DNA from: Candidatus Curtissbacteria bacterium RIFCSPLOWO2_12_FULL_41_16 | Lineage (GTDB): Bacteria > Patescibacteriota > Microgenomatia > Curtissbacterales > GWA2-41-24 | Direction: 5' to 3' | Assembly (NCBI GenBank): GCA_001776545.1 | Contig: MFBZ01000029.1 | Span: 11,988-75,987 of the forward strand | DNA: 64,000 nt | Part shown: positions 9,315 through 63,466 of the stretch, piece by piece | Position numbering within the stretch: position 1 is the first letter of the stretch | Layout: each line of letters begins with the position of its first letter | Translations under genes and position numbers: made by a program | Notes under the pieces: model-generated | The model's input: only the letters and a program-made list of their open reading frames with translations | Told to the model about the DNA's origin: nothing | Databases searched by the model: none

Positions 9315-11375
9315 ATGGACGCAGATACGCCGATTTCCCAACTTCCCGGCATTGGCAAATATTATTTTTACAAACTCAAAGGACTGGAAATAAAAACCGT
9401 TGAGGATCTTATCTACCACCTCCCGTTCCGCTACGACGACTTCGCAAAAATCGAAAAGATCCAGAGTGTCACTCCCGGCCAGAAACTTTCTATCGTGGGC
9501 ATCGTCTGGCAAATCACAAATATCAGAGCAAGATCCGGAAAATTTATCACCCGTGCAACGGTAGCAGATGAGTCTGGCACAATCGAAGTTATCTGGTTTA
9601 ACCAGCCATTTTTAACCAAAAATATCAAAGCCGGTATGCAAATTTCCTTGGCGGGCAAGGCTGACTTACAAGGATCACGAGTTATTCTTGTTTCTCCAAC
9701 ATACGAAATATTAAGACGACGGCTTGGCACCCCCGGGGGGGAAAGCAATATACACCCCGGGGGGGCCTTAGTCCATACAGCCCGTCTAGTCCCTGTTTAT
9801 CCGGAAACCGAAGGCATTACTTCCAGATGGTTAAGAGCCAAAATCGCTTCAGTCTTGCCGGAATATCTCCGGTCCCAAAAGGATTTTATCCCATATGAAA
9901 TTCTCGAAAAACAAAAATTTATCAAACTTGATAAAGCTCTCCATGACATTCATTTTCCTAATAATTTTGACGAGGTGGAGAAAGCTACCAAAAGGCTTTC
10001 ATTCGATGAGCTTTTTTTAATCCAATTAACTACCATCTTAAGAAAACAAGACTGGCAAAAGAAAAGAAAGGCACCGGCAATGAAACTCGATAAAGAAAAA
10101 ATCTCGCAGTTTGTTGAAAGTCTACCCTTCAAGCTAACGGCTGCCCAAAAAAAGGCAGCTCGCCAGATTCTTTTTGATCTAAAAAAAACAACTCCCCAAA
10201 ACCGTCTCCTGGAAGGAGATGTCGGTTCAGGCAAAACCGTAGTTGCGGCAATCGCCGCCTATGTTGCTTATTTAAATGGCTTTGACACTCTACTTGCTGC
10301 TCCCACCGAAATTCTTGCCTTTCAGCACCACCAGACACTTACAGAGATTTTATCATCCTGGGCTGTTAAAATTGGAATTTGGACCGGCAGTAAAAAAAGC
10401 GCAGGCAATATCACTTGCGGTACTCATGCCCTTCTTTCAACTTTTAAGCAACAAAGACCGATCGGCTTGGTTATTGTTGACGAACAGCACCGCTTCGGAG
10501 TAGCACAACGGGCCAAACTCTTTTTAAGACACAACTTGAGGCTCACTCCGCATTTACTAACAATGACCGCGACCCCCATACCCAGAACTCTAGCTTTAAC
10601 CTTGTATGGAGATCTCGATCTTTCGATTCTTGACGAAATGCCTCAAGGTCGCCAAAAAATTGCCACTTTTGTAGTTCCTAATCTCAAAAGGAACAACGCT
10701 TATAAATTCATCGAAAAGCAAGTTTTTGAAGGCCGCCAAGCATTTATCATTACTCCATTTATCGAACCCTCAGAAACTATGATTACAGTTAAAGCGGCAA
10801 AAGTTGAATTCGGCAAACTTAAAGACAAATTTTCTAAAAATATCAGCCTCGGCCTTCTTCACGGCAGGCTCAAGTCAAAAGAAAAAGAGGAGATAATCAG
10901 TAAGTTTAGAAAAAACAAGATCCACATATTGGTAACAACTCCGGTTGTCGAAGTTGGCATCGACATTCCGAATGCTACGGTGATGATGATCGAATCAGCA
11001 GAACGCTTCGGGCTTGCCCAACTCCACCAACTTCGCGGTAGAGTTGGCAGAGGAAAACACAAGTCATACTGCCTTCTTTTCACCGATTCAAGGTCTCCTG
11101 GCTCATATAAGCGCCTCAAAAGTATGGAAAAAATTTACGTTGGCGCGGAACTAGCCGAAATAGATCTAAAGATGCGCGGCCCAGGCGAAATCTTTGGCCT
11201 CAAACAATCGGGTTTTATCAACCTTAAGATAGCCAATCTTTCGGATCATCAAATGATAGCCAGGGCTCAAGAAGAAGCCAAAAGAATCATCGAAATCGAC
11301 CCAATTCTTAAATCATTCCCGATATTAAAACAAAAAATCTCCAAACTTTCCTCCGCCTTCGCCCAACCGAATTAG
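9315..11375 (+). CDS. recG: ATP-dependent DNA helicase RecG
   Basis: The wedge region, helicase motifs (GDVGSGKT, DEQHRFG, TATPIPRTL) and a C-terminal domain are present. It carries an in-frame palindromic insert at 9728-9767. Confidence 0.9.
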   Translation: MDADTPISQLPGIGKYYFYKLKGLEIKTVEDLIYHLPFRYDDFAKIEKIQSVTPGQKLSIVGIVWQITNIRARSGKFITRATVADESGTIEVIWFNQPFLTKNIKAGMQISLAGKADLQGSRVILVSPTYEILRRRLGTPGGESNIHPGGALVHTARLVPVYPETEGITSRWLRAKIASVLPEYLRSQKDFIPYEILEKQKFIKLDKALHDIHFPNNFDEVEKATKRLSFDELFLIQLTTILRKQDWQKKRKAPAMKLDKEKISQFVESLPFKLTAAQKKAARQILFDLKKTTPQNRLLEGDVGSGKTVVAAIAAYVAYLNGFDTLLAAPTEILAFQHHQTLTEILSSWAVKIGIWTGSKKSAGNITCGTHALLSTFKQQRPIGLVIVDEQHRFGVAQRAKLFLRHNLRLTPHLLTMTATPIPRTLALTLYGDLDLSILDEMPQGRQKIATFVVPNLKRNNAYKFIEKQVFEGRQAFIITPFIEPSETMITVKAAKVEFGKLKDKFSKNISLGLLHGRLKSKEKEEIISKFRKNKIHILVTTPVVEVGIDIPNATVMMIESAERFGLAQLHQLRGRVGRGKHKSYCLLFTDSRSPGSYKRLKSMEKIYVGAELAEIDLKMRGPGEIFGLKQSGFINLKIANLSDHQMIARAQEEAKRIIEIDPILKSFPILKQKISKLSSAFAQPN
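9728..9767. repeat. GC-rich palindromic element inside the recG coding sequence (in-frame)
   Basis: cacccccgggggggaaagcaatatacaccccgggggggcc encodes GTPGGESNIHPGGA. It contains two CACCCC(C)GGGGGGG palindromes, in sharp GC contrast to the AT-rich context. Confidence 0.6.
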
Positions 11376-11429
11376 TCGGGTTGACGATTAAAAACGATGG
11401 TTATATAATCGCAAGAACGTACCAGGACA

Positions 11430-11490
11430 AGGAATCGAACCAGCCTCGGTCAGGTATCCTATCTAACCGAGCCCGGCTGTTTTGGCTCCT
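11430..11490 (-). other. tRNA T-arm-like fragment (GGTTCGATTCC on the minus strand) without an intact cloverleaf
   Basis: Plus-strand caaggaatcgaaccagcc is the reverse complement of GGCTGGTTCGATTCCTTG. By eye I could not pair a T-stem or acceptor stem around it. Confidence 0.2.
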
Positions 11491-11567
11491 TGGCCCACAA
11501 TTAGTTCATAGTTCACAGTTTATGGTTTCTAGTTTATACTAGAACTTAAGAACCTGATTTCTTTCAG

Positions 11568-11756
11568 ATGACACCGCTTCCTAAGAAAAAACATGCCAAA
11601 AAAAGAACCCGTACCCGAAAAGCGGCTATTTCTTTGCGTCTGCCACAATTGATAACCTGCCCACGATGCCAGAACCTAAGATTCCCGCATCGAGCCTGTA
11701 CTAATTGTGGATTTTATAAAAATTCAGGTGTCACAAGTCAAAGATCAGGAAACTGA
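11568..11756 (+). CDS. rpmF: Ribosomal protein L32 (zinc-ribbon form)
   Basis: MTPLPKKKHAKKRTRTRKAA...CPRCQNLRFPHRACTNCGFYK shows the L32 signature with four Cys. Confidence 0.85.
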   Translation: MTPLPKKKHAKKRTRTRKAAISLRLPQLITCPRCQNLRFPHRACTNCGFYKNSGVTSQRSGN

Positions 11757-11758
11757 CT

Positions 11759-12166
11759 ATGAAAAAGAGAAGTGATCCAAGGCATAAGATGCGCATTCTT
11801 ACTTTCAAAACCCTATTTGAGCTGAATTTTAGACCAAACGCTAAGCTTCCCGAAAGTTCCATGTCTGCCCAGGTAATTTCCAAAAAAAAAGAAATTGACG
11901 GACTTATTATTAAAAACGCCAAGAGTTGGCCGATTGATCAAATCAATCCGGTTGACCTTAGCACTTTAAGGCTAGCTATCTGGGAACTTTTATTTAAAGA
12001 AAAAAAGGAACCATACAAAGTAATCATCGACGAAGCCGTCGAAATTGCCAAAGAATATGGTACAGAAACCTCAGGCAGCTTTGTCAATGGCGTTTTGGGA
12101 TCAATAATAAAGTCAAGAGTCAAAGCCAGGAGTCATAATTACCTGGCTTTACACTTTTCACTTTGA
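11759..12166 (+). CDS. nusB: Transcription antitermination factor NusB
   Basis: The protein is NusB-like (the ORF-track protein ends ...RSHNYLALHFSL, about 135 aa). Confidence 0.8.
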   Translation: MKKRSDPRHKMRILTFKTLFELNFRPNAKLPESSMSAQVISKKKEIDGLIIKNAKSWPIDQINPVDLSTLRLAIWELLFKEKKEPYKVIIDEAVEIAKEYGTETSGSFVNGVLGSIIKSRVKARSHNYLALHFSL

Positions 12167-12298
12167 CCCTTCGATTTACTCAGGGTCATCCCTTCGGGTC
12201 TGAGCTCCTCGAGTTACTCGAATCTGAGTGACGATCTCGGAATCGAAGATCTGAGCCTCGGAGTCGAAGACCTCAGGGTTGAAGACCTTGGCGAAGGA
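12160..12298. repeat. Repeat family 2, long copy (nusB-ACP spacer)
   Basis: ccttcgatttactcagggtcatcccttcgggtctgag...ggagtcgaagacctcagggttgaagacc; its reverse complement matches 18228-18320. Confidence 0.6.
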
Positions 12299-12319
12299 TT
12301 GACCTTGACTATCAATTTT

Positions 12320-12565
12320 ATGACAGACTTTTTAGAAGACATCAAAGAACTTATTGTCAAACAATTTGCTATTCCCGCCCAGAATATAGACGAGGACTCA
12401 CATCTGGAGAAAGACCTTGGCATCGCAGACCTTGAGATGGAAGATTTCATCACAACAATTGAGAATAAATATGAAATTAAAATCCCCCAAGACAAAATCC
12501 CCCCATTTAAAAAAGTTTCGGATATAGTTTCATTCCTTTACGAAAATGTCGACATCTCAAGCTGA
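12320..12565 (+). CDS. Acyl carrier protein-like protein lacking the phosphopantetheine-attachment Ser (Asp in the DSL position)
   Basis: The four-helix ACP pattern is present and acpP-rnc synteny matches Bacillus. The motif reads DLGIADLEMEDF, whereas canonical ACP has DLGADSLDTVEL. The start was taken at the internal Met (MTDFLEDIK). Confidence 0.65.
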   Translation: MTDFLEDIKELIVKQFAIPAQNIDEDSHLEKDLGIADLEMEDFITTIENKYEIKIPQDKIPPFKKVSDIVSFLYENVDISS

Positions 12566-13280
12566 TATCACCAATATTCAAGAACTCATAAATTTAAATT
12601 TCAGAAACGAAAAACTCTTAAAAAATGCCTTTATCCACCGATCTTATTTAAATGAGCATAAGGAGTTTAAAGGCGCCAGCAATGAACGTCTCGAATTTTT
12701 GGGAGATGCTGTTCTTTCGCTTGCCGTTTCCAAGTTCCTCTATGAAAAGTTCCAAAAAAGTCCGGAGGGTCAACTGACTCAACAAAGAAGCGCCCTGGTC
12801 AGAACCGAGACTTTGGCTAAAGTGGCCCGCACGCTCTCTCTGGGCAAATATTTATACCTTTCCAGGGGCGAGGAAGAATCTGGAGGCAGAAATAACCGCT
12901 CAATTCTGGCAAACACTTTTGAAGCGTTAGTCGGTGCAATTTATCTGGATCTTGGATTTGACCAAGCTCAAAATTTTCTAGAGCAGACAATTTTAAAAAA
13001 ATGGAGAATTTTGGCAAAAACCGCAGTTGTTGACAACAAATCAAAACTTCAGGAAATAGTTCAGCGAAAATATCACGAGTCTCCAACTTATAAACTAATT
13101 AAAAGTTGGGGTCCCGATCATGCCCGGCAATTTCAAGTAGGCGTCCTTCTGGAAAATTCTCTCCTGGGACTGGGAGAGGGACCAAATAAGCAAATAGCGG
13201 CTCAGAATGCTGCCAGAAACGCCATCGCCAAAATAAAAACTACTGATAGGCTTGAACTTCCTACTCAAAGTCTGAGATAA
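12546..13280 (+). CDS. rnc: Ribonuclease III
   Basis: The RNase III signature ERLEFLGDAVL and a C-terminal dsRBD are present. Confidence 0.9.
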   Translation: MSTSQADITNIQELINLNFRNEKLLKNAFIHRSYLNEHKEFKGASNERLEFLGDAVLSLAVSKFLYEKFQKSPEGQLTQQRSALVRTETLAKVARTLSLGKYLYLSRGEEESGGRNNRSILANTFEALVGAIYLDLGFDQAQNFLEQTILKKWRILAKTAVVDNKSKLQEIVQRKYHESPTYKLIKSWGPDHARQFQVGVLLENSLLGLGEGPNKQIAAQNAARNAIAKIKTTDRLELPTQSLR

Positions 13281-13317
13281 TTGCCAAAGTGAAATTTGAA
13301 ATTTAAAATTGAAGGAA

Positions 13318-13575
13318 ATGTCAGTCAAAATTAGACTTAGCAAAACCGGCAAGAAACACCAAATCTCTTTCCGCATCGCGGCCTTCGACACCAAAAGGAA
13401 AAGAGACGGCAAATTTTTGGAAATTTTAGGATATTATTATCCACATGGAAAAACACCGCTGCTAAAAATAAGTCAAGAACGATTTAATTTCTGGCTTTCA
13501 CACGGTGCCAAACCAACTGAGGCAGTAACCAAGCTTTTAAATCAGACGCAAAACGACAAACGACTAAAGCAATAA
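13318..13575 (+). CDS. rpsP: Ribosomal protein S16
   Basis: MSVKIRLSKTGKKHQISFRIAAFDTKRKRDGKFLEILGYYYPH matches S16. Confidence 0.85.
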   Translation: MSVKIRLSKTGKKHQISFRIAAFDTKRKRDGKFLEILGYYYPHGKTPLLKISQERFNFWLSHGAKPTEAVTKLLNQTQNDKRLKQ

Positions 13576-13597
13576 ATTAATCTTTAGACAAATTACC

Positions 13598-34630: not shown

Positions 34631-34684
34631 TCCGCACGTGTCAACATAACCCACCCCAAGGGTGGATTAGCTTTACACACGCGG
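34631..34684 (-). repeat. REP element copy 3 (inverted, immediately 5' of the RAYT gene)
   Basis: ccgcacgtgtcaacataacccaccccaagggtggattagctttacacacgcgg; its reverse complement matches copy 1 with a few substitutions. Confidence 0.65.
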
Positions 34685-34706: not shown

Positions 34707-35354
34707 ATGCCTTCAAGAATTATCCCTTTTGTCAACAATCAGTTCTATCATGTTTTTAATAGAGGAGTAGCCCAAATGCCCACCTTTAATGATAGATGGG
34801 ATTACAAAAGATTCATCAAGACATTCATCTATTATCAGATTCAAGGACCAAAACCAAAATTTTCCATTTTTAGCCCTGAGAATCATAATTTGGATACCAC
34901 TAAAAGGATTATTGAAATCATTTGCTATTGCCTGATGCCTAACCACTTTCACTTCCTCCTGCAACAAAAAGTTGATGGTGGAATCACAGATTTTGTCAGC
35001 AAAATAAGCAACAGCTATACCAAATACTTTAATACGAAAAACCAGAGGATCGGACCATTATTACAAGGGGAGTTTAAATCGGTTTATATTGAAACTAACG
35101 AACAACTCATCCATGTATCAAGATATATTCATCTAAATCCGCTAGTCTCATTCCTGACAGATAATTTAGAAACTTATCAGTGGTCTTCTTATTTGGAATA
35201 CTTGAAAGAGGTTAAAAATAACACTTGTTCGAAAGGGATTATCCTTGACCAATTTAAATCTCCGCAAGATTACAAGCAATTCGTCCTAGACCAAGAAAAC
35301 TACGGAAAAAAACTAGAGATGATCAAACACCAGCTGCTTGATTTACCAGCCTGA
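34707..35354 (+). mobile_element. REP-associated tyrosine transposase (RAYT, IS200/Y1 HUH superfamily)
   Basis: Y1 transposase motifs are present: HxH (MPNHFHFLL), a catalytic Tyr region (SRYIHLNPL) and YQWSSY. The 215-aa length is RAYT-like, and the gene is flanked by inverted REPs. Confidence 0.75.
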
Positions 35355-35355: not shown

Positions 35356-35388
35356 CCGCAGGTGTAAAGCTAATCCACCCTTGGGGTG
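35356..35388 (+). repeat. REP element copy 4 (forward, truncated, immediately 3' of RAYT)
   Basis: ccgcaggtgtaaagctaatccacccttggggtg is identical to the left arm and loop of copy 1. Confidence 0.65.
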
Positions 35389-35558
35389 TCTCCACTTTTA
35401 AACTCTTTTATAATCCACGCCTCTCTTAACCCCAAAATAAGAAGGCTTGTTTTATTCGCTTCGCTCTCAAAATAGCTTGCTTTTGAAGCTAAAAATCTGT
35501 TAAAATTGACAGAGTGATTGCTCTTCTGTAACACTGGATTCTAACCAAATTCCTATGA

Positions 35559-37532
<1,974 letters not shown>

Positions 37533-37542
37533 CCAAACTATC

Positions 37543-38109
37543 ATGGATCCAACACCTGAAATTCAAGAACTAGACAAAGAAATCATTAAAGCCCAATTTC
37601 AAGCTTGGATGAAAGAATTAAAAATAAAGGGCGAGAAATTTTCTAATGGTTCACAATCCTTAGAACTCGCTTTTGATAGGAGTGATGATCCCGAATCAAA
37701 ATTCAACGAAGAAACAGTCCTTCTTCAACAACCTAGACCGGAAGAACTACCAGAAATACCAAGAATCAATGGCGAACAATGGTTAGGAATTACCATTGTA
37801 CCGAAAAACCCATACAACTCAAGAGTCGGTTTGATGAAAGGAGTCCATAGCATTGGCCTTAGCCCAAGCTTGAAGGGTGATGCTGCTGAAGCTCTTATTG
37901 TCTTTTTATCTAACTCTGGAAGAGATTATCAAAAAACAGTCTGGCGCCCAATTCGCAGACAATCACTAAGAGAAGAACCAGAACGGCGAGAAACTTTAGA
38001 TTTCGCCACATTTAATCAAGAACTTGAACCACTCCAACCTTTAAGTGGCCAAACCTTAGAAAGATTGAATTTTTTGTATAACCTAGCATTTAGGGGTTCA
38101 ACCACTTAA
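37543..38109 (+). CDS. Hypothetical protein inserted between gyrB and gyrA
   Basis: The ORF is taken from MDPTPEIQ. It has no recognisable domain and lies in the gyrB-gyrA operon position. Confidence 0.4.
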   Translation: MDPTPEIQELDKEIIKAQFQAWMKELKIKGEKFSNGSQSLELAFDRSDDPESKFNEETVLLQQPRPEELPEIPRINGEQWLGITIVPKNPYNSRVGLMKGVHSIGLSPSLKGDAAEALIVFLSNSGRDYQKTVWRPIRRQSLREEPERRETLDFATFNQELEPLQPLSGQTLERLNFLYNLAFRGSTT

Positions 38110-41188: not shown

Positions 41189-42379
41189 TTGAAAATTATG
41201 ACAAATAACAAGGCAAGACTAATCCTTAAAGATGGCACAATATTTGCTGGGCTTGCTGCCGGCTCCCAAACTTCCGTCGCTGGTGAGGTCGTTTTCACAA
41301 CCGGCATGGTTGGCTATGACCAAAGCCTAACCGATCCGTCCTACTCCGGCCAAATCTTGGTTTTTACTTATCCATTAATCGGCAACTGGGGAGTACCACC
41401 TCAAGAATTTTGGGAATCGGAAAAAATCCATGTTTCAGGCGTTGTCATAAGCGACCTGACTACCAATCCTAGCCATTGGCAATCCCAAAAATCCCTCAAC
41501 CAGTGGTTGCAGGAAGAAAATATCCCGGCAATTGTCGGTATTGACACGAGAAAACTCACCCAGAAATTAAGGGAAAAAGGTGTCATGCTTGGCAAAATTG
41601 TGGTAGGGGATCAAGACGTCAAACTTTACGATCCTAATGCCGAAAATCTCGTCGAGCGGGTTTCTCCCAAGGAGGTAGTAATTCACAGACCGAAGTTGGA
41701 AGTGGGAAGTGAGAAAAATCTAACCTCTCACCTCAAAAATCCAGCTTCCCACCTCTCACATCGCACATCCCCAAAAGTTGGCCTTTTAAACTGTGGTGCC
41801 AAAAGAAATATTTTGAGAAATCTCCGCGCTCGCGGAGCAACGGTCTATGAACTTCCCTGGAATTTCGACCCATTCCCAGAGTCAAACACCCCCGGGGTGG
41901 GCTCTGACCCCCTGGGGGTGAGTCGAAAGATTAAAATTGATGGACTAATGATCTCAAACGGTCCAGGCGATCCAAAAATGGCCAAAGAATCTATCGCCAT
42001 CATCAAAAAAGCTCTCAAGGCGAAAATCCCCACTTTTGGCATTTGTCTTGGCAACCAGCTTCTGGCACTTGCAGCCGGCGGCGACACCTACAAACTTAAA
42101 TTTGGCCATCGGGCACAAAACCAACCGACAATAGAGGTGGGGAAGGAACGCTGCTACATTACCACCCAAAATCATGGCTTTGCGGTGGATGAGAAAAGAA
42201 TGCCAGACGGTTTTCGCCGCTGGTTCACAAACGCCAACGACAATACCAACGAAGGCATCATCCACCAAAAACTACCGTTCTTTTCAGTCCAATTCCATCC
42301 GGAAGCAAGCCCCGGCCCCACCGATACCGAATTCCTGTTTGATTATTTTTTGAACAAAGTGAAAAAAAGAGCTGCGTGA
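41189..42379 (+). CDS. carA: Carbamoyl-phosphate synthase small (glutaminase) subunit
   Basis: It has the CPSase small-chain N-domain and a class I GATase with catalytic Cys (FGICLGNQLL). It contains two GC/hairpin inserts at 41692-41770 and 41887-41922. Confidence 0.85.
   Translation: MKIMTNNKARLILKDGTIFAGLAAGSQTSVAGEVVFTTGMVGYDQSLTDPSYSGQILVFTYPLIGNWGVPPQEFWESEKIHVSGVVISDLTTNPSHWQSQKSLNQWLQEENIPAIVGIDTRKLTQKLREKGVMLGKIVVGDQDVKLYDPNAENLVERVSPKEVVIHRPKLEVGSEKNLTSHLKNPASHLSHRTSPKVGLLNCGAKRNILRNLRARGATVYELPWNFDPFPESNTPGVGSDPLGVSRKIKIDGLMISNGPGDPKMAKESIAIIKKALKAKIPTFGICLGNQLLALAAGGDTYKLKFGHRAQNQPTIEVGKERCYITTQNHGFAVDEKRMPDGFRRWFTNANDNTNEGIIHQKLPFFSVQFHPEASPGPTDTEFLFDYFLNKVKKRAA
41692..41770. 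repeat. Inverted/direct-repeat hairpin element inserted in-frame in carA
   Basis: gaagttggaagtgggaagtgagaaaaatctaacctctcacctcaaaaatccagcttcccacctctcacatc encodes LEVGSEKNLTSHLKNPASHLSH. Confidence 0.5.
41887..41922. repeat. GC-rich palindromic element in-frame in carA
   Basis: cacccccggggtgggctctgaccccctgggggtgag encodes TPGVGSDPLGVS. Confidence 0.55.
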
Positions 42380-52514: not shown

Positions 52515-53261
52515 TTATTTTCGCGGGCGTGGTCCGTCATACTCCACATCTTTTTCAGAAAGTCTTCTAAAAGGTTTTTCCCTTAATGCTTCTTCAACAA
52601 CATGAGCAACCAGTCCCGGCGTTCTGGCAATAATAAATACTCCCTTTCCTACCTTCGGATTAAAACCCATCTCCAAGAGTAATGCCGCAATAATGCCGTC
52701 AATATTGATGGGCAATCTTTTGCCACCAAATAATAGTTTCCCCTCTACGGCTTCGGCAAATTTTACAAATTTGCCATAAAATCCAAGCTCCTTGGCAATC
52801 TGAACAAGCCTGATGGTTCTCAGATCAGTTTCGTAAAGTCTATGCCCGAATCCACTAACCCGCTGCCCACTTTTGGCAAAATCCTCGACTAATTTGTCCG
52901 CCCCATCCCCTGCCGGCGGACAATATCTCAAGAAATTTTCCATCGCTGCCTCAATTGCCCCGCCATGATACTCACCCAAAGCTAAAATTCCAGATGCGAC
53001 TGCCGCTTGCACTGGACTACCCCCGGAATAAACGTTTCTCGCAGCCACAACCGACGGCGGCTCTACTCCATGATCGATGGAGATAGTCAAAATTGCCTCC
53101 AGCATCTTCTCGCTGTTTTTATCCGGCATCTCGCCTTTCAAAATCAAGTAAATCGCGCGGGCAAAGGAGTTTGTTCCGGCAAGTTCTGCCAGATCATAAC
53201 CATAAACATAGGGCCTGCCGCCAACGTGGGTGGTAATTGCGCTGCGGTAAGGTTTAGGCAT
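52515..53261 (-). CDS. Citrate synthase-fold small protein (citryl-CoA lyase-like)
   Basis: It has the citrate synthase family catalytic motif GFGHRLY plus ARTPGLVAHV. At 248 aa it has only the C-terminal catalytic region, like Ccl and the AclA C-terminus. Confidence 0.55.
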   Translation of the reverse strand: MPKPYRSAITTHVGGRPYVYGYDLAELAGTNSFARAIYLILKGEMPDKNSEKMLEAILTISIDHGVEPPSVVAARNVYSGGSPVQAAVASGILALGEYHGGAIEAAMENFLRYCPPAGDGADKLVEDFAKSGQRVSGFGHRLYETDLRTIRLVQIAKELGFYGKFVKFAEAVEGKLLFGGKRLPINIDGIIAALLLEMGFNPKVGKGVFIIARTPGLVAHVVEEALREKPFRRLSEKDVEYDGPRPRK

Positions 53262-53336
53262 AAATTAAGTATAACTAAAAGGAGATAAAGTAGCAAAAAA
53301 GCAAAAGTACAACGATACAGAATTGTTAAGGTTCCT

Positions 53337-54227
53337 CTAGAGAACTTTTTTGATAAGTTTCGGGATGTCCTCAAAATTTTCGGCGACGATTGCGCCGGAA
53401 TTTTTCAAGATTTTGATCTTCTGCTCCATTGTTGCTTCCAGCCCAACAATCGCACCGGCATGCCCAAGTGCCGTATCGTGCGGCAGCTTTTCCGCAAATT
53501 TACCTGCTAAAAAGACAATAAAAGGCTTGGTGAATTTTCCCTCTTCGATTACCCTTGCAGCTTCTACTTCGGCGCTGCCCCCCACTTCCCCAAAAGCCAC
53601 CACCACTTTTGTCTGAGAATCTTTTTCAAATTCCAAAAGCAAATCAACAAAAGTTGTTCCAACAAGTAAATCGCCACCAATACCCACAACTGTTGACTGC
53701 CCAAATCCCCCATTGGTCACTAAAAGTCCAAGCTCCGAACACATCCCTCCGGACTTAGAAATAATCCCCACCGGCCCTTTGGAAAAAACAGCGTCAGGAG
53801 CAGGCCCTCCGACTGAACCAATCTTACCCTCGCCCGGGCTAATCGCCCCCACTGATGCCGGCCCCAAAACCCGTACGTTCTTTTGGGAAGCGTGCGCGAT
53901 AACGCGCGCCGTATCAAAAACCGGCATTTTCTCTACAAAAATATGCACTAGCGGAATTTGAACCTCAATTGCCTCGACTGCCGCCTCGTAAGATGCAAGC
54001 GGCGGTACGTAAATCATCGCAACGTCAACCGGTCCAGCTTCTCTGAGTGCTTCGCCGACCGAATTAAAAACCGGAACCGTATCCACCTCCTGACCTCCCT
54101 TACCCGGAGTCACACCACTAACCACACGAGTTCCGTAATCCAAAAGCTCAGAAGTAACCTGCATTCCCGACTTGCCGGTAATACCCTGAATCAATATTCT
54201 TGTTTCTCGATTTACTAAAATAGCCAT
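53337..54227 (-). CDS. Succinyl-CoA synthetase alpha-like (CoA-binding plus phosphohistidine loop GHAGAI); candidate citryl-CoA synthetase small subunit
   Basis: ILVNRETRILIQGITGKSG shows a CoA-binding Rossmann fold, and the His loop reads DTALGHAGAIV. Confidence 0.65.
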   Translation of the reverse strand: MAILVNRETRILIQGITGKSGMQVTSELLDYGTRVVSGVTPGKGGQEVDTVPVFNSVGEALREAGPVDVAMIYVPPLASYEAAVEAIEVQIPLVHIFVEKMPVFDTARVIAHASQKNVRVLGPASVGAISPGEGKIGSVGGPAPDAVFSKGPVGIISKSGGMCSELGLLVTNGGFGQSTVVGIGGDLLVGTTFVDLLLEFEKDSQTKVVVAFGEVGGSAEVEAARVIEEGKFTKPFIVFLAGKFAEKLPHDTALGHAGAIVGLEATMEQKIKILKNSGAIVAENFEDIPKLIKKVL

Positions 54228-54237
54228 GATATTAATT

Positions 54238-54262
54238 AAAAGTTCAAAATTAAAAGTTCAAA
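54238..54262. repeat. AT-rich tandem repeat (TTAAAAGTTCAAAA x2)
   Basis: Direct reading: ttaaaagttcaaaattaaaagttcaaaatta. Confidence 0.5.
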
Positions 54263-54263
54263 A

Positions 54264-55571
54264 TTATTTTTTTCCATTAACTTTAAACTTTGCACTTTGA
54301 ACCTTGAACTGATTAGATAGCTCAACCATCTTTTTGCATGCCACCGAAATTGGTGTTTCCGGCCCAAACAAATGGATATCATACTCTTCTTTTTTGGCAA
54401 CCCGCCTAAGCATCTCATACGCTTCTTTCTGTCTCGGTCCTCCCCGGCGAATCACAATTGGGTAATCCGGTTTTGGTTTTATTTGCCCAAGGCCTTGCAC
54501 AAAACCTGAAAGCGTTTCGTAAATATCAGTAAAGTTGGCGACCGCTCCCGCAACTAAACAACCTGACAAGCCTTTTCTTGAAAGTGTAACCTGCGTCAAT
54601 TTTTCGACTTTTTCCCTCGACGGGTTGCCGGAATATTCCGTGTAATTTGCCGGTCTGCCTCCAGAGGCTATCACCGCATCCATTACGAGAAGCGACGCCC
54701 CTCCGCCTGAAGCCAAAATGGCAATATCACCCGCTTCGCCACGAGGCGAGCCATCAAGTTCGATAAAAGTTGAACCCGCTGAGCCACGGTAATCTTCCTC
54801 GTCGATTTTTTTGGCCGCCAGTTCTCGCTGTGATGGAATCGCCGATATCGCTCCCTTTGACAAAACATCTAAATCTCGATGACGGGCCAGTCCAGCATCA
54901 TCAAGAATAATTTTGGCATCAACAGCTACGTAGTCAAACTCACCATTAACACTCCCACGTTTACTCTGAGCTCGTCGAAGGGCCAAAGGATTAACTTCTA
55001 TCAACCGGCAGTCATAACGCCAAAAAGCATCCCAAAGGCGCAAAATAAAATCGATAAGTCTATCTTCTTTAGGGGTCCGACCCCTATTAGGGGTTGAACC
55101 CCTAAATATCTTTTCCAAATCTTTTTTAATTGGCCCTGCCAAAGGGTCAAAATCAATTCTTATAATCGCCTCAGGATTAGCCTTTTTTACCTCCTCAATA
55201 TCAACTCCCCCTTTTTGAGAAAACAGCAAGAAGGGTATCTTCAGCGCAGTATCGTAAGTGATCGAAATATAATACTCGCTTTCGATATCAACCTTTTCGG
55301 CAAGTGCTATGAACCTTACCTGCTCTCCATTAAATTCTTTTCCTAAATGCTCTCTTGCAAAAGCAGTCAGCTGTTTTTCTGTCGTACAAACCTTTACTCC
55401 ACCACGTCTACCGCGATTTCCGGAAAGTACTTGGACTTTTGCAACGATTGGAAATTTAAGACGCTTGCGAGCCTGTTTCACCGCATCTAAATCCGAAGTC
55501 ATCACAAAAAAAGGGGTTTCTATCCCAACCTTTGAAAGAATCCGCAGACCTTCAAATTCGTATAGCTTCAT
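54264..55571 (-). CDS. Succinyl-CoA synthetase beta-like ATP-grasp subunit; candidate citryl-CoA synthetase large subunit
   Basis: It has an ATP-grasp N-domain (MKLYEFEGLRILSKVGI...VVKCQV-like VAKVQVLSGNRGRRGGVKV) and a ligase-CoA C-domain. It carries an in-frame palindromic insert at 55070-55107. Confidence 0.65.
   Translation of the reverse strand: MKLYEFEGLRILSKVGIETPFFVMTSDLDAVKQARKRLKFPIVAKVQVLSGNRGRRGGVKVCTTEKQLTAFAREHLGKEFNGEQVRFIALAEKVDIESEYYISITYDTALKIPFLLFSQKGGVDIEEVKKANPEAIIRIDFDPLAGPIKKDLEKIFRGSTPNRGRTPKEDRLIDFILRLWDAFWRYDCRLIEVNPLALRRAQSKRGSVNGEFDYVAVDAKIILDDAGLARHRDLDVLSKGAISAIPSQRELAAKKIDEEDYRGSAGSTFIELDGSPRGEAGDIAILASGGGASLLVMDAVIASGGRPANYTEYSGNPSREKVEKLTQVTLSRKGLSGCLVAGAVANFTDIYETLSGFVQGLGQIKPKPDYPIVIRRGGPRQKEAYEMLRRVAKKEEYDIHLFGPETPISVACKKMVELSNQFKVQSAKFKVNGKK
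55070..55107. repeat. GC-rich palindromic element pair (AGGGGTCCGACCCCT / AGGGGTTGAACCCCT) in-frame in the SucC-like gene
   Basis: On the minus strand it encodes RGSTPNRGRTPK. Confidence 0.6.
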
Positions 55572-57522: not shown

Positions 57523-57554
57523 CATTAGGGGTCATTAGGGGTCCGACCCCTAAA
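57523..57554. repeat. GC-rich palindromic element (ATTAGGGGTC-ATTAGGGGTCCGACCCCTAAAT) in the divergent promoter region
   Basis: It is the same TAGGGGTCCGACCCCTA core as the in-gene copies at 55070 and 62932, and this copy is intergenic. Confidence 0.6.
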
Positions 57555-58363: not shown

Positions 58364-58376
58364 ACTTAGACAAAAC

Positions 58377-58760: not shown

Positions 58761-59803
58761 TCAAAGTATTTTCTGGCAAAATCTGCTCCTACCACCACAG
58801 TCGCAAGACCCGCATTCTCCTCTCCGGCTTGCGAAACTATATCACAATTAAACAATTTCGACAAATAGACGCTATCTTTGCCGCCATCACCGGAAAGAAT
58901 CACTGAACTTTCTCTCCTGTCCCCTTGGCTCTCTACACGAACAACATCAAAACCGACACTTGTAACAAAGTCCGTTGCCAACTTAGCCGCAGAGGAAGAA
59001 CCAGAAGCGTTGCGGATTGTAACTTTAAAATTCTTTCTCATTATTTCCGGCGTCTCCAAATATTTGGCGATAACCCGATTTAAAGAAACTTCATCAACAC
59101 CCAATACTTTTTGGCTGTCTCCAAAAACAATTTCCTCGCCATAACTCGAAAGGTCAACTAAATTCAACTGATTTATACTAAGACCTTTTACTTGCCACCA
59201 CAAGCGAAGCGCATCCAGTCGAGTAATATTTGTCTCTTGAACGTTAAAACTTTTAGGACGGGCCAAAATCAGAAAAGGGGTTAAAGGGGACGCAAAATTT
59301 TTAAACATTTTTTGCGCCTCTTTCTCGTTAATATTCTGTTTATCCTTATAAATAACATAGTTTTCAATTTTTGCCCCGAACGAAAGAGTCAAAATTTTCG
59401 CAAATTTTATTCCGTCTTTTTCCTCAACCACGGAAGAAATTTTGACAATTGGTTTATTTATTTGCCCGGAAGGCAAGTAGAAGTTATCATTAACCGTCAA
59501 AAATATCATTCTTTTGGGATCTTTCTGATAAATAAAAACCGAAGGCTGAGATGTTGAAAGTGCTAAAACAAACGAACCCTTACCGTCCCAGCCCGATTTA
59601 TCAAGATATTTTTTAAAAGACAACGACTTAATAAAACCGGAAAGAACTGCAAAAATCAGAACTATTACGATGAAGGCGGCAAGTAAATCTCGCCATTTTT
59701 TTTGGACTTGGTGCTTTTTCCAAGAAGATCGAGTGGCAGGATAATCCGTCATCTTTTTCGTATTCAACTTATCCTGCCCTGCAAAAAAATCCCTCACACC
59801 CAA
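58757..59803 (-). CDS. Membrane-anchored protein with a LytR_C-like C-terminal domain (LCP family-like)
   Basis: It has one N-terminal TM helix. The C-terminus VTIRNASGSSSAAKLATDFVTSVGFDVVRVESQGD resembles the LytR C-terminal domain. Confidence 0.45.
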   Translation of the reverse strand: MGVRDFFAGQDKLNTKKMTDYPATRSSWKKHQVQKKWRDLLAAFIVIVLIFAVLSGFIKSLSFKKYLDKSGWDGKGSFVLALSTSQPSVFIYQKDPKRMIFLTVNDNFYLPSGQINKPIVKISSVVEEKDGIKFAKILTLSFGAKIENYVIYKDKQNINEKEAQKMFKNFASPLTPFLILARPKSFNVQETNITRLDALRLWWQVKGLSINQLNLVDLSSYGEEIVFGDSQKVLGVDEVSLNRVIAKYLETPEIMRKNFKVTIRNASGSSSAAKLATDFVTSVGFDVVRVESQGDRRESSVILSGDGGKDSVYLSKLFNCDIVSQAGEENAGLATVVVGADFARKYFE

Positions 59804-59937
59804 AAGTCATTTCAAAACCTCTCTTGTCATCTCTTCAAGTCATCTCTTCAAGCTCAGAATGACGACGTTGAAACAGGCTCTAAATTGACTTTACTGAATT
59901 TAAAATTCCTTTATCTATTTGAAATTTTAAACTTTCT

Positions 59938-60073
59938 TAGCCCTTCTCCTTTTTCCCGATGATCTCTACTTTCGGAGGCGCAAAAACTTTGGCAATTTGC
60001 CCGGCTTGCTTTTCCAAAATCTCTTTTTTCTTCTTCCTCTTCTCACCTTTATAATAACTTCCAAAACTGCTCA
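59938..60073 (-). CDS. Possible 45-aa Lys-rich small protein (MSSFGSYYKGEKRKKKKEILEKQAGQIAKVFAPPKVEIIGKKEKG)
   Basis: This is an ATG-to-TAA ORF below the ORF-track cutoff, upstream of the LCP-like gene on the same strand. There is no homology support. Confidence 0.2.
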
Positions 60074-60182
60074 TAATTTATTCCACCAAAAACACCCGAT
60101 ATGTACAAAAGGCAACCTCCATATTCATTCTAACAACCAGACGCAAACCAGAACAAGCCCGCATGTTGTATAATCAGCCATC

Positions 60183-60902
60183 ATGGAAAGAAAAAACAGC
60201 GAAGAAGATAGCTTATCAGCTGGTCACAACCTTCCCCGAATCGTCTATCAAGAGGGAGTTAATTCAGGGCAAATTCCTTTTTTGATAAAGCTAAAAGGAG
60301 AAAATCTCTGCGCGCTTTTAGAATCAAGGTTTAGTTTCACGCAAGAGCAAATTAGGGGCCTTGCGATCACGATTTCCCCAGAAATCAAAGAGGTCAGGGA
60401 AGAATTCCAGGAAAAATTAATTCTTGGAGAAACGGCACTCAGAAGAAACCCTCAAGGAATAAGAGAAACCACCCTCTACGCCGGAAGTTTGGCCAGATTC
60501 CATGCCGGCCAAAAATCTGAGGTCGCGGAAATGGATTCAGAACAAATTATTTTGGCAAGAACTCAAAGACTGTTTAGCTTAACCCTCCTTCATGAGGCCA
60601 GACATGCTTATGACTTGGATCTTATCGAGCAAGAAGAGAAAAAACTCAAAAAAACTCAAAAAAGGGCGCTGTCTGCTGTCGGAACACGGCTTGCCAGGCT
60701 GGCAGCTAACTTGGCATTGTTGATCCTAAACCGCAAGATTATCGGATCCATGGGTTCAGGCGCTTATACGTTTATTCTCGACAGAAGGCTAAAAAAGTCT
60801 CCTGAATTTCAGGATTTGGAAAATCGCGCGCAAGAAGAAACAAATAATATTACACCCGAATGGACAGAAATCATTGAAATTACCAAAAACCCGACTTTTT
60901 AA
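60183..60902 (+). CDS. Hypothetical protein with an HExxH motif (LLHEARHAYD), putative zinc metallopeptidase-like
   Basis: A single HExxH is present and a TTGTATAAT -10-like box lies 13 nt upstream of the ATG. Confidence 0.35.
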   Translation: MERKNSEEDSLSAGHNLPRIVYQEGVNSGQIPFLIKLKGENLCALLESRFSFTQEQIRGLAITISPEIKEVREEFQEKLILGETALRRNPQGIRETTLYAGSLARFHAGQKSEVAEMDSEQIILARTQRLFSLTLLHEARHAYDLDLIEQEEKKLKKTQKRALSAVGTRLARLAANLALLILNRKIIGSMGSGAYTFILDRRLKKSPEFQDLENRAQEETNNITPEWTEIIEITKNPTF

Positions 60903-60909
60903 ACCATCC

Positions 60910-62610
60910 TTAAAATATTTTGTGAGATAAAAGTTCCTCAAAATACTGGCTTTTGGCTTTTTTAATAGCCGCGAGATTATCCCAGTGGTCGCCTAAAAGT
61001 TTGGCCAAATGCTTACCGCCTACGGTTTCCGGAACCACCACGTAATCTGCGCCAGACTCATAAAGACGAATGGCATCGTGAAGCCAATAGGCAGTCGCAA
61101 TAATTGGTCCTTTGTAATTTTTCCCCTTGGCAAACCTTATAAGATGGATGTTGTCTGAAACATCAGGATCAGTCACTACGATGAGTTTTGCCCGGCCGAA
61201 TTCTAACTCTTCCAAAACCTCTGGATCAGAAATATCACCAAAAACTGCATTATAGCCGGATGCTGTAATTTGTTTAATTATATCGGGATTAAAATCAACA
61301 ACCACGATCTGATTTTTATCGCGAGTCTTAGTTTTTAAAAATTCCAAAATGTCCCAACCCATTTGTTCACCGCCAACCAAAACTAGGTGATCTGTCAGCT
61401 TCTCTCTGTTTAAAACGTATGGTTCGCGAGCTACCTGCGGCAGAACCACTAAAAATGGCTTTTCCAGAAATCGATAGATCCTCTCCCCATAAAGAATTAA
61501 GTAAGAAGAAAGAGCAATCGTTACAATCCCAACGCCGGCCACTAAAGAAAGAGTATCGCCACTTATATGCCCAAGCGCCACCCCTGTTGTCAAAAGTATC
61601 AGAGAAAATTCTGAAATTTGCGCACCGGTCACTGAACTTAAAAAGGCAGTCCTGTTTCTGAAGCCCAACGTTTTCATAATCGCCAGCATTATAAGTGGCT
61701 TACCAAAAAGGATAAATAAAGACAAAACCAGAATATCGACAATCATCACGCGGGATGCCGAAACGGAAATAGAAGCCCCCAGTAAAATAAAGAAGATGAC
61801 GATGAAAAAATCACGAAGTGGCTTGACTCTTGCCGAAATCTGTAAGCGATATGCGGAAGATGCAATGGCCACACCCGCCAAAAATGCCCCGATGGCAATC
61901 GAAAAACCGGCTATTGCGCCTACGGCAGATAACAAAAAGGCCCAAGCAATAGCTGCAACGAATAACAATTCAGTAGAAGTTGAAGTCAACTTAAACAAAA
62001 TGGGCAAAATGAATTTTGAAGCCAAATATGTTAATCCTACTAAAAGTAACCCTTTGACGAAAATCAAAAGAATCGAAAACATCGAAGGAAGATGGCCGCC
62101 TTGACCGAATCCCGACAAAATCATCAAAGCGCTGATGGCTACAAAGTCCTGAGTCAGGAGATAACCAATGGCAATTTTCCCGTATAGGGATTGCAAATCA
62201 TGTTTCTCGGAAAGTAATTTAATGATAATTACTGTCGAAGAAAAAGTAATGGCAAAAGCAATGTAGGCTGCTTCAATTGGACTCTGTCCGAGCCCGGAAA
62301 GTAGAATAAAACCGACAACCAGCGTGAAAAAGATCTGCCCCAAACCCGTAAAAATTGCTGTCTTACCCACGTATTTAAGATCTTGGGTTTTAAGCTCCAC
62401 TCCTACCAAGAAAAGCAGAAACGCGATGCCAAGATTTGAAAGGAGATCAAAAACGGATTTATCAATGTTTTTGAAAAAACCAAAAAGAGAAATAATAATG
62501 CCTGAGAAAATATAGGCGAGAATGAGCGGCTGCTTGAAAGACCGCAGTATAATCCCGATAATTGTGGCCAAAACCAGAACGCTGGCCAGCTCTAAAAAGG
62601 CAGTGGGCAT
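60910..62610 (-). CDS. Cation:proton antiporter (CPA2, Kef-type) with a C-terminal RCK/TrkA-N domain
   Basis: It has about 12 TM helices and a Rossmann GxGxxG (LVLVGGEQMG) in the C-terminal domain. Confidence 0.75.
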   Translation of the reverse strand: MPTAFLELASVLVLATIIGIILRSFKQPLILAYIFSGIIISLFGFFKNIDKSVFDLLSNLGIAFLLFLVGVELKTQDLKYVGKTAIFTGLGQIFFTLVVGFILLSGLGQSPIEAAYIAFAITFSSTVIIIKLLSEKHDLQSLYGKIAIGYLLTQDFVAISALMILSGFGQGGHLPSMFSILLIFVKGLLLVGLTYLASKFILPILFKLTSTSTELLFVAAIAWAFLLSAVGAIAGFSIAIGAFLAGVAIASSAYRLQISARVKPLRDFFIVIFFILLGASISVSASRVMIVDILVLSLFILFGKPLIMLAIMKTLGFRNRTAFLSSVTGAQISEFSLILLTTGVALGHISGDTLSLVAGVGIVTIALSSYLILYGERIYRFLEKPFLVVLPQVAREPYVLNREKLTDHLVLVGGEQMGWDILEFLKTKTRDKNQIVVVDFNPDIIKQITASGYNAVFGDISDPEVLEELEFGRAKLIVVTDPDVSDNIHLIRFAKGKNYKGPIIATAYWLHDAIRLYESGADYVVVPETVGGKHLAKLLGDHWDNLAAIKKAKSQYFEELLSHKIF

Positions 62611-62620
62611 AAACTAGACG

Positions 62621-63466
62621 CTAGTCGCTAGACGCTAGAAAAATCATTGCATTTTTAAGATCCTTTGGCAAGTCTAGGGTAAAAGCAATTTCTTTTTTTG
62701 TCTTAGGATGCCTGAAGGCTAAGAATGCCGCGTGCAAGAAAAGCCGCGGGCACCACAAAAGATCAAATTTAATAAGTTTTCTCGGACAGTAAATCAAATC
62801 AGAAACGATTGGATGGCCAATACTTTTTAAGTGAACACGAATTTGATGAGTCCGGCCGGTTTTGGGAAAAACTTTAAGCAGTGTATAGAAAGTAGCATGT
62901 TTTTCCAAATAATTAATTCGAGATTTAGTCATCCCCTCCAGGGGTCCGACCCCTTCAGGGGTCGGACCCCTAAAGAACTTGTGCTGAAAGTAACTAACCA
63001 TTCGATATTCCGTCCTTGCCTCTCTAGCCTTAGAACCAACACCATTCCAAACCCGGTTTGGAATTGAAGCTACAAACCGGGTTTGGGCAACCCCAAACTT
63101 GCCAAATTTGCCTATCCTGCCGATCTTAGATTCAATAACCCCCGACTCCTCCTTTATTAGTCCATGAACCAAAGCCATATATTCTTTCTCAACTCTCCTT
63201 TCTTTAAATTCCCCTTGCAAGAAATCAAAGGCCTCTTGGGTCTTTGCCACCAAAAGAAGTCCCGAAGTCTCCCGATCCAGTCGATGCACAATCCCCGCCC
63301 GATCTCCAATGCCTGAATCGCCAGGTTTGAGGTGAAAATATCCCGCCAGTTGATCTTGTAACGTCTCTTCACGAATCGTCTCGCTCCGATTCACCACCAG
63401 CCCAGCCAGCTTCTCAACCACTAAAATCTGTCCATCCTCAAAAACAATGCTTGCTCTCTTTAACAT
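62621..63466 (-). CDS. RluA-family pseudouridine synthase
   Basis: The catalytic HRLDRETSGLLLVAK is present. It carries an in-frame palindromic insert at 62932-62974. Confidence 0.8.
   Translation of the reverse strand: MLKRASIVFEDGQILVVEKLAGLVVNRSETIREETLQDQLAGYFHLKPGDSGIGDRAGIVHRLDRETSGLLLVAKTQEAFDFLQGEFKERRVEKEYMALVHGLIKEESGVIESKIGRIGKFGKFGVAQTRFVASIPNRVWNGVGSKAREARTEYRMVSYFQHKFFRGPTPEGVGPLEGMTKSRINYLEKHATFYTLLKVFPKTGRTHQIRVHLKSIGHPIVSDLIYCPRKLIKFDLLWCPRLFLHAAFLAFRHPKTKKEIAFTLDLPKDLKNAMIFLASSD
62932..62974. repeat. GC-rich palindromic element pair (GGGGTCCGACCCC / GGGGTCGGACCCC) in-frame in the RluA-family gene
   Basis: cccctccaggggtccgaccccttcaggggtcggacccctaaag encodes FFRGPTPEGVGPLEGM on the minus strand. 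Confidence 0.6.

Follow-up and report, generated by a model that had tools for sequence, protein, structure and literature searches.

The 64,000-nucleotide stretch of Candidatus Curtissbacteria bacterium RIFCSPLOWO2_12_FULL_41_16 considered here (GCA_001776545.1, contig MFBZ01000029.1, positions 11,988 to 75,987 of the forward strand; hereafter the window) contains two families of G4/C4 palindromes, A and B, most of whose copies are placed in frame within protein-coding genes. It is considered probable that these palindromes are non-autonomous selfish repeats of the repetitive extragenic palindrome (REP) type, or of its hairpin-forming doublet, the REPIN, that they survive only in permissive loops of the host proteins, and that they were most likely copied in trans by a REP-associated tyrosine transposase (RAYT). 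The evidence consists of the repeat families themselves, their build as hairpins and doublets, their in-frame sites, their absence from most orthologues, one empty site found in the DNA of a relative and the occurrence of family A beside RAYT genes in other genomes.

In-frame palindromes and their host genes

Family A is the palindrome AGGGGTYSRACCCCT, and family B, CACCCCSGGGGTG, follows the pattern ACCCC-N0-3-GGGGK; the units of both measure 13-15 nt and form stem-loops with stems of 5-9 bp, as REPs do. Five exact copies of family A are present (55071, 55089, 57537, 62940 and 62957), against 0.02 expected from shuffles, together with a copy at 38092 that carries one mismatch. Family B occupies four sites (9728 and 9753 in recG, 41887 and 41907 in carA), which gives eight strand-matches against about 0.5 expected. 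Units of both families are nearly always paired as inverted doublets folding into one long hairpin, with fold z-scores from -2.4 to -6.5. Five of the six loci overlap open reading frames (ORFs), where REPs by definition are mostly extragenic.

Host genes of the doublets:
9315-11375, + strand, recG; Pfam RecG_wedge, DEAD and Helicase_C; best PDB match 1gm5 (E 6e-132)
41189-42379, + strand, carA, carbamoyl-phosphate synthase small chain; Pfam CPSase_sm_chain and GATase; PDB 1bxr_B (E 1e-76)
54264-55571, - strand, 435-aa protein like the large subunit of citryl-CoA synthetase (CCS-like, SucC-like); Pfam ATP-grasp_2 and Citrate_bind; best PDB match 6hxq_B (E 1.9e-54)
62621-63466, - strand, 281-aa RluA-family pseudouridine synthase; Pfam PseudoU_synth_2

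Palindrome loci (no strand assigned):
9728-9765, family B doublet CACCCCCGGGGGGG-N11-CACCCCGGGGGGG, in frame in recG, encoding TPGGESNIHPGG; fold -29.1 kcal/mol
38092-38106, single degenerate family A unit AGGGGTTCAACCACT, forming the last residues (RGSTT) of the ORF 37513-38109, with the TAA stop at 38107-38109 directly after it
41887-41920, family B doublet CACCCCCGGGGTG-GGCTCTG-ACCCCCTGGGGGTG, in frame in carA, encoding TPGVGSDPLGV
55071-55103, family A heterodimer of 33 nt, AGGGGTCCGACCCCT-ATT-AGGGGTTGAACCCCT, flanked by TTT/AAA, in frame in the CCS-like gene, encoding RGSTPNRGRTP
57523-57553, family A half unit CATTAGGGGT followed by full unit CATTAGGGGTCCGACCCCTAA, intergenic between the divergent yebC (-) and TPR gene (+)
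62933-62971, family A homodimer AGGGGTCCGACCCCT-TC-AGGGGTCGGACCCCT (62940-62971) preceded by a partial CCCCT (62933-62937), in frame in the RluA gene, encoding RGPTPEGVGPLEG

The heterodimer of the CCS-like gene has TCCGA and TTGAA centres and one stem with a single mismatch (RNA fold -27.5 kcal/mol, z -5.1). The two units of the RluA gene are inverted copies that differ only in their centre, C versus G, so that 62940-62971 is a perfect 32-nt palindrome; as RNA it forms a 20-bp stem (-39.4 kcal/mol, z -6.5), lengthened by the partial CCCCT. This is the inverted two-unit hairpin of a REPIN, and centre C followed by centre G is found also in the carA orthologues of loci L150 and L152. The spacer of family B doublets varies in length, and each still folds into one hairpin. 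Family A is flanked by TTT/TTA...TAA/AAA, by ATTG in one Saccharibacteria contig (L007), or variably. A known structured RNA was rejected as the source of the hairpins, as an Rfam scan of the whole window gave no family at gathering score.

The reading frame in which a copy lies is not fixed. Frame 1 of family A (AGG GGT xxx ACC CCT) yields RGxTP and frame 2 (GGG GTC xGA CCC CTx) yields GVxPL; the third frame is never seen in real genes because the usual flanks, TTAGGGG...CCCCTAA, supply TAG and TAA stops. An example of a predicted peptide that would span an insert is FFRGPTPEGVGPLEGMTK. A preceding sequence-only reading had already described such palindromes in recG, carA, the SucC-like gene and the RluA gene, one core read in different frames, and a copy between divergent genes: every palindrome it quoted lies where it had been placed, the frames stay open, the peptides are exactly those quoted, and the copy at 57523-57553 is indeed intergenic. 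Its list had missed one locus, the fourth of family A at 38092-38106. The genome, described there as AT-rich, is only moderately so (GC about 42% across the window), and of the host genes, called essential, recG is not generally essential.

Comparison with orthologues shows that most of them lack the element; this holds for RluA, carA and the CCS-like gene. Among 119 Curtissbacteria-type CarA sequences (63-75% identity), the linker between PWNYDPF and IDGLVISNG has five residues (consensus ENNLP) in about 85% and 20 in the window, and human CPS1 aligned with the window CarA shows a 16-aa gap at the insert. Two TPGV motifs (ACC CCC GGG GTG) separated by spacers of 2-12 aa are present in 12 carA orthologues, which occupy at least six separate places among empty-site sequences in a neighbour-joining tree that serves as a rough guide only. 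Such scattering points to repeated gain, or to repeated precise loss.

In the CCS-like protein most orthologues read KIF-PKE or KIF-GKD, and the window reads KIF-RGSTPNRGRTP-KE. The empty site is preserved in the DNA of locus L154 as ATC TTT CCG AAA GAA, and the filled site of the window is ATA TTT [AGG GGT TCA ACC CCT AAT AGG GGT CGG ACC] CCT AAA GAA. The same gene in L153 carries a decayed family A copy whose pairing is lost. An alignment with PDB entries had suggested no insertion in this protein; it was misleading, the loop being of similar length in distant homologues, and close orthologues together with the DNA show the insertion. In RecG the inserted residues belong to a loop of the wedge domain that precedes the HTGRLVPVYPET motif, at a point where the RecG of T. 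maritima and E. coli has a 10-aa gap; the loop usually has 7-10 aa among 106 representatives (50% identity clusters) and 19 aa in the window. In RluA orthologues without a palindrome the corresponding position is taken by about 11 native residues (xxFxxΦΦxxxG); the doublet is common to five orthologues of 59-69% identity, and others keep a degenerate second unit only (in L129, GGGGTCGGACCTC). Neither of two syntenic loci from related genomes, L129 and L130, has a copy of family A or B within its roughly 21 kb, and their yebC/TPR spacers likewise are without a family A element.

In AlphaFold2 models the CarA insert (residues 232-245) is a coil between two strands with pLDDT below 50, in a weak model with a mean pLDDT of 64; the RluA insert (residues 166-179, pLDDT 72-79, model mean 87) lies between a strand (148-162) and a helix (181-190). 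These predicted positions, in coil or low-confidence loops, fit permissive surface loops.

The same repeats are found in other genes and genomes. Besides its sites in the RluA and CCS-like genes, the heterodimer AGGGGTCCGACCCCT-N2-3-AGGGGTTGAACCCCT is carried by further low-GC contigs, in frame within genes of at least five more families:
L062/L132, pyruvate/2-oxoacid:ferredoxin oxidoreductase (POR/OFOR), peptide SGVRPLIGVEPL
L111/L131/L136, pyridine-nucleotide disulphide oxidoreductase (Pyr_redox_2), peptide RGPTPKGVEPL
L135/L142, GlmS-like amidotransferase
L148, cobalamin adenosyltransferase (Cob_adeno_trans)
L133, YfhO-like membrane protein

Family A copies in L138, L140, L141 and L147 lie outside any ORF of at least 90 aa and are probably intergenic. 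A 33-nt double hairpin that recurs in unrelated genes and genomes, in two frames and between genes, and that most orthologues do not have, bears out the proposal that a DNA element, and not a protein feature, has proliferated. Orthologues free of the repeat do not contain the encoded peptide (ENNLP in the carA linker, TTT CCG AAA at the CCS-like site), and the family is not confined to the few sites of the window.

The breadth of these searches should be kept in mind. The scan of a genome collection (596 Gb) for AGGGGTCSGACCCCT, from which L007, L014, L018, L062 and L111 were taken, gave at least 120 matches, and among those listed most were single matches in GC-rich genomes, at about chance level for 596 Gb. 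A metagenome scan for doublets gave 18 loci; the window's own contigs were not among them, hence absence from that scan means little. Viral collections gave no doublets and one RAYT relative, without G4 hairpins nearby. GGGGTC(N)GACCCC doublets and singlets with shared flanks were seen in multiple copies in high-GC genomes (soil metagenome contigs L139, L143 and L146, GC 66-68%; Nitrospiraceae, L072 and L085), and this core hairpin would seem to be a REP type with a wide distribution far beyond the Candidate Phyla Radiation (CPR). Family A is present as well in GCA_964562855.1 (L111/L128, CAZLVB01), titled 'uncultured Gammaproteobacteria', whose RluA is 63% identical to that of the window and whose gene order is syntenic with Curtissbacteria; the label looks wrong.

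The CCS-like gene belongs to a three-gene cluster (52515-55571) comprising the 435-aa large subunit, a 296-aa CoA_binding/Ligase_CoA small subunit and a short 248-aa protein with a Citrate_synt domain. Its layout resembles two-step citrate cleavage by citryl-CoA synthetase and citryl-CoA lyase (CCS/CCL), and the cluster is kept in relatives (L153).

RAYT genes and the spread of the repeats

The enzyme that would account for the dispersal is suggested by the neighbours of family A elsewhere. When the window RAYT was compared by tblastn with loci fetched solely through the family A pattern, RAYT homologues were found in four contigs, each with GGGGTCNGACCCC units, single or doubled, on either flank of the gene; identity to the window RAYT is 38-39% in L007 and L140 and 26-30% in L014 and L018.

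L007 (Saccharibacteria), AATTGAGGGGTCSGACCCCT on both RAYT flanks
L140 (low-GC metagenome contig), heterodimer 27 nt 5' of the RAYT gene, degenerate unit 3' of it
L014 (Bacteroidota metagenome-assembled genome, MAG), doublets on both sides
L018 (Ilumatobacteraceae), core within longer stems at the RAYT flanks

By a rough estimate, well under one RAYT would be expected by chance within 1 kb of about 140 random loci. As the flanking is far above this, family A as found in those contigs can strictly be called a REP associated with a RAYT, and the bracketing of RAYT homologues by the GGGGTCNGACCCC hairpin in Saccharibacteria, Bacteroidota and Actinomycetota contigs offers a concrete candidate enzyme-substrate pair. 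In P0517, a cluster mate of the L140 RAYT, the doublet is translated at the N-terminus. A third REP copy in L007 (CAZWKW010000019.1, 4079-4093) forms an in-frame part of the RAYT ORF, where it encodes KLRGRTPYV.

The window has a RAYT gene of its own with a third type of repeat, here called REP-R:
34707-35354, + strand, RAYT-like Y1 (HUH) transposase gene, 215 aa, motifs NHFH and RYIHLNP
34632-34684, + strand, REP-R copy 5' of the RAYT gene, hairpin of about 53 nt with CACCCCAAGGGTG at the tip
35362-35388, - strand, inverted half copy of REP-R 3' of the RAYT gene
7711-7763, + strand, dispersed intergenic REP-R copy, 27-nt core identical to that of the RAYT-flanking copies; DNA fold -17.3 kcal/mol, z -4.5
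1814-1866, - strand, dispersed intergenic REP-R copy

The predicted protein scores 30.6 bits against Pfam Y1_Tnp (cut-off 23), and both motifs are conserved across aligned homologues, in agreement with a Y1/HUH fold and its catalytic tyrosine. A PDB search with the single sequence gave no match; a profile of five homologues matches ISDra2 TnpA (2xm3, E 6e-4) and E. coli TnpArep (4er8, E 3e-3), weakly. On sequence grounds the protein belongs to a divergent clade. The 27-nt core of REP-R, CACCCCAAGGGTGGATTAGCTTTACAC, stands at the hairpin tip and is perfect at 34652 (+), 35362 (-), 1820 (-) and 7731 (+). A RAYT gene bracketed by inverted REP-R, with further copies dispersed, is a classical and complete REPtron. 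Unlike families A and B, REP-R is intergenic in all four of its window copies. Its tip hairpin and family B nevertheless share 11 of 13 bases, and when CACCCCSGGGGTG was searched for with up to two mismatches allowed, the four units of family B and the tips of all four REP-R copies were the only matches (8 versus 0.39 expected).

Taken together, the following course of events may be proposed. A RAYT-type Y1 (HUH) transposase acting in trans would copy hairpin units around the genome as single strands, and in a small, gene-dense CPR genome many of the copies would fall into coding sequence. Selection would purge insertions that bring a frameshift, a stop codon or a disrupted fold. The survivors would be copies free of stops, located in tolerant surface loops and in the linkers between domains, and their transcription and translation would give peptides rich in Gly, Pro, Thr and Arg (family A, RGxTP or GVxPL; family B, TPGV). 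Thereafter a copy may decay neutrally, or its palindrome may be kept by re-insertion, gene conversion or self-templated correction.

Several observations weigh against this course. The window RAYT reaches 47.9 bits with NCBIfam REP_Tyr_transpos, below the cut-off of 80, and is flanked by a different, strictly intergenic REP; within 73 kb of this genome no RAYT gene is flanked by family A or B. The flanks of families A and B do not carry the GTAG or CGTC tag typical of catalogued REPs, and comparison of the filled and empty CCS-like sites reveals no target-site duplication and no excision footprint. In RluA the net gain is only 3-5 aa, the element having largely replaced a hypervariable loop with no clean addition; the loop is thus an insertion relative to orthologues, as the sequence-only reading supposed, in carA, the CCS-like gene and recG, and mostly a replacement in RluA. 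Its suggestion that the RAYT mobilises the palindromes is supported by the homologues flanked by GGGGTCNGACCCC in four contigs and by the REP-R tip lying within two mismatches of family B, with the caveat of the different REP around the window RAYT.

It could be argued that the repeats are selfish or neutral but were not moved by a RAYT, having spread by homologous or microhomology-driven gene conversion, by template switching at forks or through another enzyme, and that their association with RAYT genes is hitch-hiking, REPs simply accumulating beside such genes. The absence from the window of a RAYT flanked by family A or B, the missing GTAG tag and target-site duplication and the replacement in RluA speak for this, as do several unrelated insert families in the same loops, which suggest a general loop-insertion process. 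What does not agree with it is that in four independent contigs, which belong to different phyla, RAYT homologues have one and the same core hairpin on either side; nor does the heterodimer, which is kept as a unit across loci and genomes. Spread of this kind is judged unlikely, although of the alternatives it fares best, and a RAYT is the enzyme that would most plausibly have moved families A and B in this genome.

Crowded loops and conserved hairpins

The loops occupied by the palindromes also hold inserts of other kinds. The inter-domain linker of the window CarA (41690-41770, residues 168-194) contains a third, different palindromic insert, GAAGTGGGAAGTGAG...CTTCCCACCTCTCAC, which encodes EVGSEKNLTSHLKNPASHLSH and is common to the orthologues P0124, P0126 and P0145; its fold energy is -21.7 kcal/mol (z -3.6), and its AlphaFold2 pLDDT is below 50. 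The length of this linker varies between 27 and 93 aa across the 119 orthologues, in which it accommodates numerous distinct inserts resembling hairpins, family A (VGVGPL, P0134) and family B (FTPGV...TPGVY, P0160 and P0222) among them. An in-frame insert family of about 30 aa, 'YSSS(D/E)...GRIEK/ESRSL...SSRLRSNN(I/K)', was noted at the very loops used in the CCS-like and RluA orthologues of different Curtissbacteria (P0243, P0257, P0267, P0283 and P0297; P0038, P0040, P0083 and P0112). It suggests a repeat family in this lineage of the size of Rickettsia palindromic elements (RPEs), and was looked for in the window without success. Two more insert families, of 46-53 aa, occur in carA orthologues: 'GWQSWKGS...GSTDGKETTDRTR' and 'RGVAxxEGLP...ALAGxKxLTGP' (carriers P0130, P0161, P0170, P0183 and P0211, and P0162, P0233, P0237 and P0176). 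Each of the two is found at both variable CarA sites, in different genomes.

From this crowding a broader proposal may be drawn, according to which the proteomes of Curtissbacteria, and perhaps of all CPR, are systematically remodelled by co-existing translated palindrome families that re-colonise the same few loops; families A and B, the EVGSE/LTSHL-type hairpin of the carA linker, the 'YSSS...SRLRSNN' family and the 46-53 aa inserts would all take part. Selection or concerted evolution would actively keep the hairpins for their action at the mRNA or DNA level, for instance as translational pause sites at domain boundaries; in ultra-small genomes, REPINs driven by RAYTs would on this view serve as a domesticated source of loop diversity and co-translational control. 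We regard this as a shade less likely than spread without a RAYT.

Conservation of the hairpins deserves separate attention. Unit 1 of the RluA doublet is identical at 5/5 codons (15/15 nt) in three orthologues that share 63-69% amino-acid and 64-69% overall nucleotide identity; elsewhere in the gene, conserved residues with four- or sixfold degenerate codons use the same codon in all three in only 19% of cases (P about 2e-4). The carA orthologues of L150 and L151 read CACTCC-S-GGAGTG instead of CACCCC-S-GGGGTG, the paired C>T and G>A changes in both hairpins keeping the stem. Synonymous conservation and compensatory change could equally mean selection on the hairpin, and in this they too count against a purely selfish origin; independent insertion of a sub-family, gene conversion or self-templated quasi-palindrome correction are further explanations. 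The decayed copies in L153 and L129 indicate that hairpin upkeep is not universal.

On such grounds the hairpins could be held to be functional cis-elements under selection, whether ribosome-pausing mRNA structures, RNase or stability sites or protein-bound DNA, their spread being a matter of recruitment. Besides the conserved RluA unit and the paired carA changes, the high stability of the mRNA hairpins (-28 to -39 kcal/mol) and the siting of inserts at inter-domain linkers and loops would suit such a role. It is hard to reconcile with it that most orthologues of every host gene are without the element, that non-pairing copies persist in L153 and L129, that host genes and positions are unrelated and some copies intergenic, and that transposase genes are flanked by the same palindromes, while the conservation is explicable by re-insertion, gene conversion or self-templated correction. 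Slightly less probability is given to this interpretation than to the remodelling of whole proteomes.

Finally, that the segments are native lineage-specific loops or protein motifs, chance palindromes or assembly artefacts is scarcely credible: homologues do differ inherently in the length of the host loops, but the counts are far above shuffles, identical strings of 15-33 nt recur within genes that are unrelated, under two frames, and between genes, orthologues show empty sites, and the elements are identical in six independent assemblies, namely two NCBI MAGs (GCA_001775075.1 and GCA_001776395.1, both Candidatus Curtissbacteria of the Microgenomates group, in which the window belongs to a contig of roughly 96-99 kb) and four independent JGI assemblies of Rifle groundwater metagenomes, and so are no artefact of assembly. 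JGI and NCBI contigs are 99.9% identical, with no indel, over the 3.5-kb stretch compared, which rules out a difference in the calling of a Na+/H+ exchanger gene as a mobile-element polymorphism.

Inserts of this kind have practical consequences. They inflate the apparent divergence of proteins, create spurious low-complexity loops and disturb marker-gene alignments, and gene callers can be misled, as in P0517, where the RAYT ORF runs on across the REP that belongs to it. A natural map of insertion-tolerant sites is provided by the hypervariable loops in carA, in RluA and in the CCS-like gene.

Some further features of the region were noted. GC-rich overlapping palindromes, CGCTTCGCTCGCGAAGCGAGGCGAGC, lie at 9270-9295 just 5' of recG; their sequence has no relation to that of family A or B. 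Near 35448 there is a similar string, 'TTCGCTTCGCTC'. Just outside the window, a 225-aa ORF with a faint LAGLIDADG_3 match (L002, 3625-4302) is called in GCA_001776395.1 and is not listed at the same place in the sister MAG (L001).

Comparison with known repeat systems

The closest relatives of families A and B are to be sought among REPs and REPINs. A REPIN is a REP doublet that forms a hairpin, and bracketing of a RAYT gene by REPs on both sides is the defining layout of a REPtron (Bertels et al. 2017, PMC5581495). REPs with GTAG or CGTC tags have been catalogued, and their intra-ORF singlets and dimers encode 20-30 aa, notably in DNA repair genes, including a repair helicase, and in pseudouridine synthase genes; they are most abundant in Opitutus terrae and in Rickettsia conorii, as RPE-4 and RPE-6 (Di Nocera et al. 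2013, PMC3733652). Families A and B share with REPs and REPINs the short GC-rich stem-loops, the mostly inverted dimers, the dispersal of copies, seen here within the window, and the flanking of a Y1 transposase gene, the last seen for family A in other genomes. With the REPs that lie inside genes in Opitutus terrae, Thauera, Xanthomonas and Stenotrophomonas they have in common a partial location within ORFs, the addition of 10-30 residues and hosts that include repair helicases and pseudouridine synthases. They differ from catalogued REPs in the absence of a GTAG/CGTC tag, in their units of 13-15 nt, in their CPR/Patescibacteria host, in being mostly intragenic (the same 5 of 6 loci in the 73 kb sampled) and in a RAYT clade that falls under the NCBIfam threshold.

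The RPEs, to which the sequence-only reading had likened the palindromes, are the classic in-frame palindromic selfish DNA (Ogata et al. 2000, 2002; reviewed in PMC10969869). The likeness extends to in-frame insertion into unrelated conserved ORFs, in a reduced genome and at surface regions. It does not extend to size: an element of the RPE-1 type spans about 100-150 bp, and the conserved peptide that it encodes has 30-50 aa, whereas the doublets described here have 15-nt units, measure 32-45 nt in all, as REPs would, and encode 11-15 aa. RPEs are further set apart by lineage and sequence composition, so that similarity in sequence is not expected, and no transposase is known to be linked to them, while family A brackets RAYT genes. 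Nor are the elements MITEs (miniature transposons with inverted repeats), which have terminal inverted repeats and a target-site duplication; the whole of a family A element is palindrome, and no duplication is seen at the CCS-like site.

Two other systems offer partial parallels. The SDR (small dispersed repeats) of heterocystous cyanobacteria, which Elhai and colleagues reportedly described in 2008, are said to be palindromic mobile repeats of about 21-27 nt, often nested or in tandem and occasionally located in conserved genes; they differ from families A and B in sequence and lineage, and we know of no reported association with a RAYT. GC-cluster and double-hairpin elements of fungal and other mitochondria are likewise hairpins of high GC content that multiply in a genome richer in AT and at times enter coding sequence. 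These are organellar, with a different and largely unknown mobilisation, and some are bypassed by the ribosome rather than translated.

A full-text literature search for CPR or Patescibacteria together with palindromic insertions and the motif strings gave nothing relevant. The present results place a REP/REPIN-RAYT system in the CPR, where in such a gene-dense genome the elements survive mainly within genes. The class of mechanism is already known; what is new in comparison with the systems above is the CPR setting, the intragenic dominance, the pairing of the GGGGTCNGACCCC hairpin with RAYT genes across phyla and the crowding of unrelated translated repeat families into the same loops.

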